Below, in pieces: positions 6,001-15,000 of a stretch of 64,000 nt of DNA. Position 1 is the stretch's first letter. Every line of letters begins with the position of its first letter. This stretch comes from a plasmid. Made by a program: the position numbers. Location: assembly GCF_056712565.1 (NCBI RefSeq), contig NZ_JBWXXM010000002.1; one strand, written 5' to 3'.

Positions 6001-9000
6001 AAACGGCTAAAGTTATCATGGTAGACAATCCGCAGTTCGCATTATCTTTGGCAATTGCTGATACTATTTATTCAGAATAATGAGCTAGAACATGGCTAAA
6101 AACCCTATCTCAAATAAGGCAGATAACGACCGGATTCAGATCCGGTCTTTCTGGATATCCGAAAGAAAAGCACCCTATGTTTATAGTTTCTTGAAAAAAA
6201 CAGAACTTTCTCATAGGGGTGACCAACTGGATTTAATTAGGTCGGCTATTAGTACCGGGTTGGTATTGAATAATTTATTTCCTGACTTGGCAAATTTTAT
6301 AAATGGTTTAAACGAAAGATTAACACTTGCAGATCTTAATAGGTTTCTGAATGATGGAAATACTATAGATACTGAACCTAAGCCTCCTATTAATGTATTG
6401 CTAGAGAATGTCTTAGATCAAAAGTTTAAGGAGTATTTAACACCTCTACAATTAGATAATTCAAAGCAGGATTCTGTTTCTGTAAAAGAAACCTTCCTTG
6501 TACAAAAGGAACATGCCTGCTTTGGTGTGAAGATTGAAAATGAGGGAAGCGATACCTCTATACCATCTGAAAGCCCACTTTCTTCAGATGCATCCAAAAT
6601 TTCAAAAGAAAAGTCCATTTCCGCTGTGGTGCCAGTGCTAGAAAAAGTATCGGATGAAAATCAAACCGCCTCCATAAGCATAAAATCTAAAGCTAAGGCA
6701 AACAAGCGACTGGCAACTTTGGCAAGATAGGTGAGAGACAGTACAATCGACTTCTGAGTTCCAACTTGTCTTACCAGGAAAGCCAGCATACTTGCTGGCC
6801 TTTTTTTTGTTATAATAATTTCAGGCTTCACCTGGGTATGTAAAATTACTGTTAATGAAACGGTATTTTAGGTTAATTTGGGTGCTGTTACAGGAAGTGC
6901 GGATTTTTCCTAAATTTGTAAAAAACCTAAGAATTATCTTAATAAATCTGGTACTTAATTATTATTTTACTTATAAAGTCTCTGTGCTTTAATGGTTATG
7001 TAAGGATTTTTTGATACCCTTATACCCGATGGACCTAAGGTCACTGACAACGATGTTCATGTAGAATCTTCGTTTCTGTAATCCCTTTTGTTCTTGTCCC
7101 AAATGTTTGATTATTATAATAAAGGCTGATCGAATGCTATCTCGCAACTCACTAATACATGGTTTACGCCGAGACCAGTTAATCGGAGTTCTGACTATTT
7201 CAGAGTTTCCGGTAGTTATGGTAGAAAGCCACTTCATTCAGTCTGAGGTTATGGGAATAAAACCCGTAATTTTTAATATTGATGAGCTTCTTGTTTCTAT
7301 ATCCCCAATTTCCTCTCTTAAGTTCGATTGGGAGTGGGCCCCAGTTGATACAATACTCATTGAAGTTATCATTCCACCTGTAGAGTCAGACCTTGTAAGT
7401 GCAGAAAATGACTTCCTCCGTGATTCTGGTATCGGCCATATCCAGTGCGAGCCTGGCGGAGCATCAATACGACGTACAGTTACCTTCGTTGGTGGAATAA
7501 CCGCTGATAACTTACTGTATCAGTTGAGGCTTATGTGCGTAAGTGCGTTAAAACTTTTAGGAGAGGAACTGGGGGATGAAGTCTAAGATTAGATATGTTT
7601 TATCTGGTTTTGTTGTGATATGTGCATTTGCTGGAGTTTATAAAATCCTAAACAATGTTCCGGTTAAACCTGACCTTTTGGACTTCACTGGAAACACATT
7701 TAAAAAGACATCACTCTTCCTGCCATGTGATAAAAGCTCGCCTTCTTTAAACATTAAAATTGCTGATAACGAGAAAATCGTGATCAACGGCATCGCTTCA
7801 AAAGTAACTTTTGTTGAAAAGGCTGACCCCGTCAAAAGCCCTGGTTTTTGTGATGATCTTGATCTAAACAATTCTCGCCTTGTACATACGGCATCTTACA
7901 GCATGGTGATTTCTGAAACCAAAACAGGATATACACTCTCAAATTTCAAGCATCTTGCCGATGATGAATCATTAGGTGGTATGTGGTTTTATCAAAAGTG
8001 ACTTTTTATATGGCAACTTCAGACTTCTCTCTTAAAAACCATAATGTAAAAGCTTTTGGTCAGGATGCAGCACTTGTCATTGAGATGAACAATGAAGATG
8101 TTAGCTCATCAAAACCTTCACCTTTTTCAAATGAGATTGATAATTATTATCTTACATTGCACGTCGCTCCGAGGAACGCCAAAAAAGATTATGACTGGGG
8201 CTCAAACCGTTCTGTACTTCTAAAATTGTCGACGAATGAAGTTATGCAGATGGCATCTGTATTTCTTAGAATCATGCATACTTTAAAAATTGATAAGAGG
8301 AAAACCTCACATCATGGCCACGTCGTATACAAAAATATAAGCGTTACCCCAAACGAGAGGGGCGGTTTGTTGTTATCAGCAGGGATAGTTCCAGTCGATA
8401 AAGACGGCTTAAAACCCTTCATGCACATGGTCCCCGTCTCACAAATGGACTGCGTTAAAATTGGCCTCTACATACTTGGATATCTTGCTCAAAAAACGCC
8501 TTGGGTAAGCTCCGAGTCTATAATTACCGCGCTTCGCTTATCTGAAGCCAAGAATTCAAAATAGCGTATTAACATACGGAATACATGGAAAAATACAGGT
8601 TTTTTTAAATGTTATACGAACGGATATTTCTGTTTTTCATCGTAAAGTGAGTTTAATTTTGCTCAGAAAAACAGGTATTCGTCATGAGAAAATCAGGTTT
8701 AGGTTTAGCCCTGTTGTTTTCTTTAATTGCTCCGATTAAAGCGGTCTATGCCGAAGCGATTATGATTTCAGGAAAGCTACAGGCTGATTTGCCAGCCGTA
8801 TCCTTTGACCCGGGGCCGGGCGACTTTGTTGCATACGTTAATTCTAACACTATCACTGCCTCAGGTGCAGGCACAGCCTGTAATGTAACGGTTGATGATC
8901 GAGCGACTTCCTCTGTTGATAACCTCGTTTGTTTTTTTGAGTGGTTACCCAATACCTTGGGATTTACTTCTAACGGTTTCACTCTTTCAGGCGTTCCCAA

Positions 9001-12000: not shown

Positions 12001-15000
12001 GTCTGTTACCCTTACTGAGCAAATGTTGGATAAACAGGGATATGCTGCTTTTGAATACAGTGCATGGTTAGCGGACAATAAGGAGAATACGGTTTCTACC
12101 CGTAGAGTTTCTGTCAAATCGTGGGTTTATAAATTCCCCGAAATGAAAATAAGCTCCAAACTTAAATACGACATGGCACCGACCACCCTACGCGTTGCGT
12201 TGAGCGGTATTAAGGATGGAGACTATCCTGGTGTTACTTATTCCCGAGAATGGATTTACGACAAAGAGAATCTGGTAATCACTAAAGATGAAGGTGACAC
12301 CAAAGAATTTACAATTGAAAATCCTGGCAAATATACATTGATGGTTGTTTTCAAAGATAACCGCAACAATGAACAGCGTATCGAAAATACCTTTGTTGTC
12401 GATGAACAAACGCCAATGAACGTTGAGATGACACCCAAGTTCTCTAACAAATATATGAGAGCTCCACTCGATGTAACCTTAAGGTCAAACATCAAGCTAT
12501 CTCATTCGGCGGACTCGATAGATACGGTCACATACAAGGTGAACGGTGAGGTAATACCCAGCGGCAAAAATTATTGGGCTCAACTGATTTCGGGTTTAAA
12601 AGAAAAGAAATACGAGATCACAATTGATGTTGTTAGTAAACTTGGACAGAGAGGTTCAGCATCTGTTGAGTTTGATGTCGTTAAAAACGCAGTGCCTAAT
12701 TGTACATTGAGCTACACGGAAACCAACCTAAGCTGGAGCTTTACCAATAAATGTGATGATACTGATGGAAAAATGGTTAGATATGAATGGTTCATCAACG
12801 GCGAATTAAGGAACGTTTTCGGTAGTACGGCTACACTTTCTAAAAACCTTAACCGTGGTAAGCAGGACATAAAAGTAATTGCTTATGATGATAGTGGAGA
12901 CTTTGCAACGCAGCACGTGACAGTTTTCGGACCGGCTGAAGAGGCAAGTAAGTCTGAAAACACTGTATCAATACCAAGCAGTGAGTAATAAATTTTTAAA
13001 TATAAAGCCGGGACATTTTGTCCCGGCTTTTTTATGCCCAACAATTGGACCTTTGAAAAATTAATACCGGAAAGTAACTTTGCTACAAAGGTATCTTTCA
13101 TGGCCGCTAACAAGGCTGCGTCTACATGCTGAGAAATTAACATCCTTATAGGTTAATATTAGGTTAGTTTGCAGACTTCCGAGCGTTGAAAAACATGGAT
13201 AATAGTTACTTGGATAGAGGTGTATCTACTTAGTAAAAATATTCTTCAGTGCTAGTGAGAAAAATATGAGCGACTACATACCTAAAAAGAGAGGGCTGCT
13301 TATACTGGATTGGTATGTCCCCATTAATATTTTATTGCTGATTCTCGTTATGTGTGTCTTTTTCACCCGTTATACATTTGGATACGGTTTATTGAATGGG
13401 TGCCTGCCTGCTGATTTTTATATGATTGATCATTCGGATAAAACTATTAAAACTGGTGAACTCATAGCTTTCAACATGCCGAAATCGGTTCGTTTTATCC
13501 CAGAAAATGAACGAGTCATAAAAATTGTTGCCGGTGTGGGCGGTGACAAACTCAAAGTAACAATGGATGGGGTTTATAACGGGGACAAATTTTTTGAAGC
13601 TAATGCACGTCGTATTTCAAAGAAATACAGTATTCCGTCCATTTTGATTGAAAAAGAATTGATAATTCCTGAAGGCGAAGTTTTCCTAATTGGGCAAACC
13701 GATCACTCATGGGATTCCCGTTTTTGGGGAACAGTAAAGCTGAATTCAGTAATTGGGAAAACATATGCGATCTTTTAATGTAAATAAAAAATATTTACCA
13801 ATACTTCCTGGACTTGCGTTATGTGCAGTTTTAAGTAATACAAATGCAAGCACTGAGTATCAACATGATGCTGACCTAATCGCTCAGCAAGCAAAAGGGC
13901 TTGGCGCTCAGGCTAAAGGTGCACAGCAGCCAGATGGGGCTCTTAGCCTTGATGCTACGCTAAATTCACCAGATGTGCAGAAGTACATTGCGCAAGCTGA
14001 AGCACTCAAAAAAAACCAGGACCTGAGCAGGCAAACAAACCGTGGTTACGTGCCCGGTATGAATGCGGATAGTGTTCAAGCAGTTATAGACCATACCCAG
14101 GCTATAAGGGCCCAAAGTAATAACTCTGATGCTGTCAACGATATAATTAGAAGACGTGATGAAATTCAGGAAAACGCCAGCCTTAATGAAGCGGCTCTGA
14201 AAGCTGTGGAAAATAAGCCGGAAGTCATGCGAGGACAATCTAAAAATATCGAAAAATTGTTTGGTTCCTCGGGCATCACAGCTGCTGACTTCGAAAGAAA
14301 AATGGATAGCACACGTGAAGAAGCACTATCAACTGAAAATGGTATAACGATCTTTGCTTCATTTAGCTTACCGGATTATGTACTGGAAGACCTTTTACGT
14401 ACGGCCTCAGAGCATAAAGCTCGTGTAGTTTTCAATGGTCTAAAGAAAGGAACTACTCGGCTACCAGAGACACAGGCAGCAATAAACCAAATGATTGTCA
14501 AAGGAAAATTTGAATCTCCTTTGATTACAATTGATCCTGATAGCTTCAGTCAGTATCAAGTAACTCAAGTACCGACAATTATTTCTCGGGAGCAAGCTCG
14601 TTTTGCAAAAATGGTAGGGTCCTTCAACGTTGAGTTTTTTCAGCGAGAACTTGCTAAAAAACCCGATCAGGACATTTTTCCTGTTGCTGGTACGATTTAT
14701 CCCGTTGAAGAAAAGAGCATCATTAAAGAACTGGAAGAACGCGCACAAAAATATGACTGGGAAGGTGCAAAAAAAAGGGCCGTTGCGGACACCTGGAAAA
14801 ATCAATGGATGGTCGATCTCCCTCCTGCCCAGGAACACAAAGAATTTTTAATTGACCCTACAGTGAGGGTCACTCAGGACGTAAAAGATAAGCAGGGCCG
14901 TGTAATAGCTTCCGCCGGTGAGTTGATTAATCCACTTTCGAGATTTCCTCAAAACCTGACGATGATAATTTTCGATCCACTCAATCCGGGCCAGCTGGTA

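Follow-up and report, generated by a model that had tools for sequence, protein, structure and literature searches.

The large Ig-like open reading frame in the transfer region of an IncHI2 plasmid is in all probability rsp, the orthologue of the R27 conjugation gene

We have analysed a stretch of 64,000 nucleotides (hereafter the window) from a plasmid contig (NZ_JBWXXM010000002.1, NCBI RefSeq assembly GCF_056712565.1), in which an original prediction, made from the sequence alone, had singled out one large open reading frame (ORF) at 8684..12988 as a 1434-residue secreted repeat protein embedded in the transfer region. In all probability this ORF is rsp, the IncHI2 orthologue of the gene encoding RSP in the IncHI1 plasmid R27, and its product would be an accessory protein of the H-type (MOBH/MPF-F) conjugation system. 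It is a real gene but not a new one: it already bears a name, NCBI lists its product as IncHI-type conjugal transfer protein RSP, and two experimental papers are devoted to it. The ORF lies on the plus strand, as do all features of rsp and of its neighbouring genes described below up to 19683, and runs uninterrupted over 1434 codons from an ATG start to a TAA stop that is immediately followed by a second TAA. Its DNA is 100% identical to the rsp allele annotated in IncHI2 plasmids and its protein is 100% identical to WP_001232107.1 and to a cluster that gathers 2805 sequences. A DNA search against plasmids matched 1126 records, 1089 of them at ≥99% identity, chiefly large conjugative plasmids of Escherichia, Salmonella and Enterobacter typed as IncHI2A/MOBH/MPF-F. 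The alignment with R27 RSP showed 84% amino acid identity over 1428 aligned residues with 0 gaps, and the order parA/parB, four ORFs, parM, htdA plus two small genes, rsp, trhF, trhW, trhU, trhN and trhI is common to R27 and the window. No family was matched by full-length RSP in a scan of the NCBIfam hidden Markov models (HMMs), and the NCBI product name was evidently given by means other than these HMMs.

The function of RSP has been documented in R27, where rsp (ORF R0009) encodes a 155-kDa, almost all-beta protein present in both secretome and periplasm and seen at full size by mass spectrometry (Hüttener et al. 2019, PLoS Genet, PMC6764697). Transcription of R27 rsp is thermoregulated, being far higher at 25 °C than at 37 °C, and deletion of the gene makes conjugation in liquid undetectable, a defect complemented in trans (PMC6764697). 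The same study reported that RSP expression lowers motility and that the protein decorates flagella, that it is released into the medium and not found in the outer-membrane fraction, that its export is lost in a ΔtrhC mutant, and that an rsp allele occurs in all IncHI1 and IncHI2 plasmids (PMC6764697). Later work extended the export requirement to TrhH and to the pilin TrhA, and showed that RSP binds the conjugative pilus and co-precipitates with TrhH and with a second immunoglobulin (Ig)-like protein, RSP2 (Hüttener et al. 2022, mSphere, PMC8730810). The suggestion in the original prediction of a surface adhesin or mating-aggregate factor comes close to this picture of an exported protein that binds flagella and pilus, lowers motility and is needed for conjugation, in liquid above all, and, to the extent that an 84%-identical and syntenic orthologue allows the function to be carried over, it appears essentially right.

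The signal peptide that had been proposed is retained here as a prediction. The N-terminus of RSP reads MRKSGLGLALLFSLIAPIKAVYA, followed past the cleavage point by EA, and combines two basic residues, a hydrophobic stretch and a V-x-A cleavage motif into a predicted Sec signal peptide of residues 1–23, cleaved after VYA (8684..8752). This is the sole strongly hydrophobic segment of the protein, with Kyte-Doolittle values above 1.4 only in hydropathy windows starting at residues 3–11 (segment 3–29), and neither the hydropathy profile nor the AlphaFold2 (AF2) models revealed a membrane anchor, a second hydrophobic segment or a beta-barrel. Among 18 homologues spanning 100% to 26% identity, which included sequences from Photorhabdus, Yersinia and one Vibrio plasmid, the signal-peptide architecture was retained in every one while individual residues varied, and the mature N-terminus (E/K)(A/S)(I/V)(M/Y)(I/V)(S/T)G was conserved immediately past the predicted cleavage site (EAIMISGKL in the window protein). 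All eight cysteines of RSP are likewise invariant in this set, one truncated sequence not reaching the last pair, and they are arranged in four close pairs (66/83, 197/206, 529/554 and 1340/1357) kept down to 26% identity. Genes for disulfide isomerases are found in the transfer regions concerned, namely HtdT in R27 Tra2 and DsbC directly 3′ of the IncC homologue described below. As for the C-terminal tail (approximately residues 1417–1434; 12932..12985), it is acidic and poorly conserved, with a conservation of 0.38 against 0.6–0.8 in the rest of the protein, a predicted local distance difference test score (pLDDT) below 50 for the last 16 residues, and one K/R against five D/E in the last 30 residues, and it is variable or missing in homologues.

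The expectation of a beta-rich, repetitive protein held fully in its first part and, in its second, at the level of the predicted fold only. AF2 was run on two overlapping halves of RSP, each from an alignment of 11 sequences, and reached a mean pLDDT of 80.8 for residues 24–700 and of 77.7 for residues 641–1434; both models appear almost entirely as beta strand, organised in an estimated 13 or so units of 80–140 residues each. Foldseek searches of these models against the PDB at E ≤ 0.001 returned 180 matches for the N-terminal model and 356 for the C-terminal one (best E values 1.7e-11 and 4.2e-17), all of them strings of Ig, cadherin, FN3 or macroglobulin-type domains, including the RTX-adhesin extender repeats 6xi1, 6xi3 and 4p99, the GhpA grappling-hook protein 9flw and the PrgB Ig-like domains 8beg. 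A search of the PDB by sequence gave no match below E = 0.26. Repetition was absent from the primary sequence: self-BLASTP at E ≤ 10 retrieved the self match alone, Tandem Repeats Finder detected no repeats in the rsp DNA, and an all-against-all hhalign comparison of the 13 putative domains peaked at 51% probability (D12 with D13), with 19% for D1 with D5. RSP, as modelled, is thus a repeat protein by fold and not by sequence. A weak motif, G-x-x-C, 16–24 residues, C-x-[FP]-[EQ]-W and then P...G[LF], was observed in D1 (residues 62–135) and D5 (524–600), and is also present at least twice in the IncC protein; it suggests an old internal duplication of a cysteine-pair domain that may have diverged past significance, as the hhalign value of 19% would have it.

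Along the chain, an N-terminal module (8795..10564) is predicted from the AF2 model, the Foldseek matches and the cysteine pairs 66/83, 197/206 and 529/554 to hold about five beta-sandwich domains, placed approximately at residues 38–142, 145–252, 255–396, 399–495 and 497–627. Within it, a profile search of Pfam with RSP as two halves detected a weak Big_3_3 domain at residues 356–497 (9749..10174; hmmscan i-E 0.002, 18.2 bits), which corresponds to the Big_3 domain of R27 RSP at residues 331–470 and is the sole Pfam-detectable domain of the protein, the C-terminal half giving noise only. The profile search for Ig-like repeats thus came close to finding no such domain, and the models still show a string of them. 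Residues 487–1405 (10142..12898) form a core shared with an Ig-like conjugation protein of IncC plasmids, delimited by tblastn and BLASTP, which would comprise about nine beta-sandwich domains according to AF2 and Foldseek, with the cysteine pair 1340/1357 within it. No Pfam match to the translocator barrel of intimins, invasins or autotransporters was obtained, and the models show units of beta-sandwich size throughout. Inspection of motifs found no GGxGxD RTX motif, lipobox or LPXTG in RSP; readings of the protein as an autotransporter, a type-1 adhesin, a sortase-anchored protein or a lipoprotein were ruled out by motifs and models together.

The distribution of homologues places RSP in a family that reaches beyond the IncHI plasmids. 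A tblastn search against plasmids sorted into four tiers: IncHI2 plasmids, at ≥99% identity over the full length (1099 records); IncHI1 plasmids, at about 84% over the full length (282 records at 80–90%); Klebsiella IncHI-like plasmids, at about 51% over the full length and with the order htd, Ig-like gene, signal peptidase, TrbC, TrhU and TraN as here; and IncC (IncA/C) plasmids, at about 24% and over RSP residues 487–1405 only. R27 RSP resembles the window protein in its signal peptide, its eight cysteines, its weak Big_3 domain and its site between the htdA group and trhF, and differs from it in 16% of residues and in the last six or so, which do not align. The IncC homologue, an 1828-residue Big protein (WP_000606835.1; ALG87338.1 of pKAZ3), is also encoded among the transfer genes of a MOBH/MPF-F plasmid, although flanked by dsbC and traC and not by htd genes and trhF; in the example of pATCCBAA2146_4 (locus L011, 3226-8712) the DsbC gene is the one directly 3′. 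This high-molecular-weight protein is reported to promote conjugation at 25 °C (PMC8730810). Its residues 926–1819 align with RSP 487–1405 at 24% identity (E 9e-71), BLASTP leaving RSP residues up to about 486 unaligned, whereas its N-terminal part of about 800 residues, which contains DUF4165, Big_3_2 and Big_3_3, aligns with the whole of R27 RSP2 at 27% identity (E 9e-59). Judged by these alignments, the IncC protein unites an RSP2-like N-terminal part and an RSP-like C-terminal part in one fusion, and the fact that two proteins co-precipitating in R27 form a single polypeptide in IncC suggests that RSP and RSP2 may act as one unit.

RSP2 of R27 (R0055), from the same plasmid family, is likewise secreted and Ig-like and has a short cysteine-pair motif in common with RSP domain 2, although its 794 residues, with DUF4165 and Big_1/Big_3, show no overall homology to RSP. 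Its export is partly RSP-dependent, and it binds both flagella and pili (PMC8730810). IncHI2 plasmids were stated to lack rsp2 (PMC8730810). A tblastn search with RSP2 nevertheless retrieved full-length homologues of about 38% amino acid identity in IncHI2 plasmids, at no more than three matching places per plasmid; in the IncHI2A plasmid CNR48 the homologue lies at NZ_LT994835.1 132967-135357 (locus L014, 4010-6400) and is followed, as in R27, by a RelE/ParE gene. The accession of the IncHI2 RSP2 homologue is WP_000694552.1. These matches suggest that, contrary to the published statement, an RSP2 homologue of IncHI2 plasmids has been overlooked. No copy of it was found within the window.

Taken together, these data allow us to propose a route for RSP. 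The 158-kDa precursor would cross the inner membrane by means of its cleavable Sec signal peptide and fold in the periplasm into a chain of about 13 Ig-like beta-sandwich domains with four conserved disulfide pairs. By analogy with R27, where trhC, trhH and trhA are required, it would leave the cell only with a working plasmid pilus and type IV secretion system (T4SS), its exit across the outer membrane being probably coupled to pilus biogenesis. Once outside, it would bind flagella, with a decrease in motility, and the conjugative pilus, so that contact between donor and recipient is made and kept, the outcome being efficient transfer at low temperature, above all in liquid; these last steps were shown for R27, and every functional step is inferred from orthology for the IncHI2 allele. 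Export in two steps, through the periplasm with Sec first, seems likely, given that the signal peptide is conserved and the four cysteine pairs are invariant, that a periplasmic pool has been published and that disulfide isomerase genes occur in the transfer regions. More specifically, and as a possibility that we put forward only tentatively, RSP might not be a conventional T4SS substrate: it would reach the periplasm by Sec, acquire its disulfide bonds there and leave with the H pilus as the latter grows, to act outside as one half of a two-part pilus-associated adhesin, the other half being an RSP2-type partner. The IncC fusion of RSP2 with RSP, the RSP2 homologue of IncHI2 plasmids (38%), and the signal peptide and cysteine pairs found throughout the family point in this direction.

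A rather improbable alternative is that RSP is a one-step substrate of the T4SS, recruited in the cytoplasm and driven through the conjugative channel like a relaxase or an effector, with an N-terminal hydrophobic segment that has no Sec function. It agrees with the published reading that the R27 T4SS mediates RSP export and with the intracellular accumulation of RSP in ΔtrhC, ΔtrhH and ΔtrhA mutants (PMC6764697, PMC8730810), as well as with the type IV route suggested by the authors' secretion-type predictor (PMC6764697). All three mutants, however, block assembly of the pilus or the T4SS, and since pilus assembly is abolished in each of them, transport through the channel and pilus-dependent release cannot be separated. 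The signal-peptide architecture and conserved cleavage context of every homologue, together with four invariant cysteine pairs suited to oxidative folding in the periplasm, also argue against recruitment from the cytoplasm, as does the detection of R27 RSP in the periplasm (PMC6764697). Moreover, the C-terminus of RSP, acidic and unconserved as it is and missing from some homologues, speaks against a C-terminal T4SS signal. Secretion signals of VirB/D4-type systems are usually C-terminal.

It is much less likely still that RSP belongs with general fibrillar adhesins or biofilm proteins such as SiiE, BapA or the RTX adhesins, in which case it would mediate attachment to host or abiotic surfaces and its place among the transfer genes would be incidental. 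A stalk of tandem Ig-like beta-sandwich domains is what such proteins and modelled RSP would have in common, the Foldseek matches to the extenders 6xi1, 6xi3 and 4p99 agree with it, and the C-terminal region of R27 RSP was reported to be similar in fold to SiiE and SraP (PMC6764697). Nevertheless, type-1 fibrillar adhesins have many similar tandem repeats and a C-terminal RTX/type-1 signal but no signal peptide at the N-terminus, whereas RSP shows no near-identical tandem repeats by self-BLASTP, Tandem Repeats Finder or hhalign, no GGxGxD motif and no C-terminus of the type-1 secretion kind, and bears a Sec-type signal at its N-terminus instead. The gene keeps its position in Tra2, furthermore, across IncHI1, IncHI2 and Klebsiella IncHI-like plasmids, with the IncC homologue adjoining traC, and the phenotype of the R27 deletion concerns conjugation (PMC6764697).

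The chances are slimmer again for an entry (surface) exclusion factor, or an outer-membrane component acting against redundant matings, which the original prediction had also envisaged and to which only the location in the transfer region and the export signal lend themselves. R27 RSP is released to the medium and was not recovered in the outer-membrane fraction, and its deletion led to the loss of donor transfer and not of exclusion (PMC6764697); entry-exclusion proteins are anchored in the envelope as membrane proteins or lipoproteins, and the window protein, for its part, has no lipobox, transmembrane segment, other anchor or beta-barrel. An annotation or assembly artefact, be it a pseudogene or a frameshift fusion of several genes, is practically discounted, for nothing speaks in its favour beyond the occurrence of rsp copies disrupted by insertion sequences (ISs) in some other plasmids, whereas the ORF is uninterrupted and free of frameshifts, identical to a cluster of 2805 members, collinear and gapless with homologues of 1401–1450 residues down to 26% identity, and represented in R27 by a protein seen at full size in mass spectrometry (PMC6764697).

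Several points weigh against the function and route proposed here for RSP. The published experiments concern R27, and the function of the IncHI2 allele is wholly transferred from that 84%-identical protein. IS-disrupted copies of rsp occur in field IncHI2 plasmids, and rsp is therefore dispensable for plasmid persistence. The R27 papers describe RSP export as T4SS-mediated, via a periplasmic intermediate, and do not mention a signal peptide (PMC6764697, PMC8730810). As regards architecture, the AF2 models are based on just 11 sequences and their inter-domain geometry is unreliable, with predicted template modelling (pTM) scores of 0.55 and 0.34, while the count of about 13 domains and their borders are estimates from secondary structure.

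Comparable solutions are known from other systems. A precedent for the route proposed for RSP, albeit one with no homology to it, is pertussis toxin, which Sec delivers to the periplasm and which then needs the Ptl T4SS to be released across the outer membrane; pertussis toxin is a multisubunit toxin, and Ptl makes no conjugative pilus. Mating contact is promoted in Enterococcus by PrgB, the aggregation substance of pCF10. This surface protein, also encoded on a plasmid, has Ig-like domains in tandem that are among the Foldseek matches of RSP (8beg) and have no sequence homology to it. PrgB is a Gram-positive LPXTG protein anchored in the cell wall, whereas RSP has no LPXTG and, to judge from R27, would be released to bind pili and flagella. 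Stabilisation of donor-recipient contact is achieved in F-like plasmids by the TraN-OmpA pair, TraN being a donor outer-membrane protein that binds recipient porins; its IncHI homologue TrhN is encoded 3.5 kb 3′ of rsp. TraN has another fold, and RSP differs from it also in its probable release.

The genomic context agrees with the location that had been noted between the partition region and the T4SS assembly genes. On its 5′ side rsp is preceded by ParA/ParB, a metallophosphoesterase block, ParM, and htdA (‘H transfer determinant A’) with two small transfer-protein genes (7107..8564), the last three named from the annotation of R27 and of the identical region of pSTM6-275, as the NCBIfam HMM scan gave no match for them. 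On its 3′ side, NCBIfam matches and plasmid annotation identify trhF (S26 signal-peptidase/TraF-like), trhW (TrbC+TraW fusion), trhU (TraU) and trhN (TraN, mating-pair stabilisation) at 13266..19683, followed by the helicase gene trhI. The signal-peptidase-like gene trhF (13266-13778) lies directly 3′ of the Ig-like gene in IncHI1, IncHI2 and Klebsiella IncHI-like plasmids, and in IncC an S26 signal-peptidase-like gene is found about 3.6 kb downstream of it. Concerning expression signals, a weak Shine-Dalgarno-like AGG may be read at 8673..8675, 8 nucleotides 5′ of the ATG, and a promoter scan found sites rarer than in shuffled sequences, with none convincing within the 119-bp gap 5′ of rsp. 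The gene does appear to have its own terminator, as had been anticipated: RNA folding revealed an intrinsic terminator at 13004..13033, whose hairpin (13004-13030; stem of 12 bp, loop of 3 nucleotides) starts 16 bases 3′ of the stop and is followed by a T run, with a folding energy of −20.4 kcal/mol (z = −5.28) equalled in 0 of 200 shuffles; a consensus terminator scan did not pick it up.

Regarding natural variation at this locus, rsp was found interrupted by ISs in seven field IncHI2 plasmids (loci L002 and L004-L009) at seven different positions, after nucleotide 164 (ISKpn26), 612 (IS1203), 987, 1620, 1735, 2249 and 2368 (IS2/IS3 family), and split copies occur in at least 15 of the 1126 plasmid records. 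A search with one of the rsp::IS junctions retrieved a single record, which indicates independent insertions and not one lineage. Several of these plasmids carry mcr-1 and are still typed as ‘conjugative’. Natural IncHI2 plasmids with a disrupted rsp include pLS61394-MCR and pABW_A19a.

The window as a whole is collinear with the IncHI2A plasmid pSTM6-275 at 99.97–99.99% identity, two IS differences apart. One is an IS1203 insertion of about 1.3 kb in pSTM6-275 at window position ~36320, not present in the window. The other, a segment of about 1.2 kb at 45792-46987 that is not present in pSTM6-275, holds a 326-residue ORF (45860..46840) that, judged by eye, looks like an IS5-family transposase, and appears to be an IS inserted beside the gene at 46941..48209 on the minus strand, or into its end. 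From ~46000 to 64000 the GC content rises from ~0.38–0.44 to ~0.50–0.55, and this part matches the IncHI2 tellurite-resistance (ter) cluster, with terZ, terB, terC, terD, terW and TerY/VWA/kinase/phosphatase genes.

mcr-1 is among the resistance genes of which IncHI2 plasmids are major carriers, and RSP, going by the function of its R27 orthologue, would be both surface-exposed and required for their transfer. The protein is already being investigated as a target for vaccines and nanobodies (bioRxiv 10.1101/2023.12.12.571265). To this known gene the present analysis makes some small additions, all offered as hypotheses, namely the two-step export, the RSP2-RSP fusion of IncC plasmids, the RSP2 homologue of IncHI2 plasmids and the repeated inactivation of rsp by ISs. 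If the tentative reading of RSP as half of a two-part adhesin is true, the conjugative pili of MOBH/MPF-F plasmids would carry a dedicated Ig-like accessory adhesin, exported in two steps.

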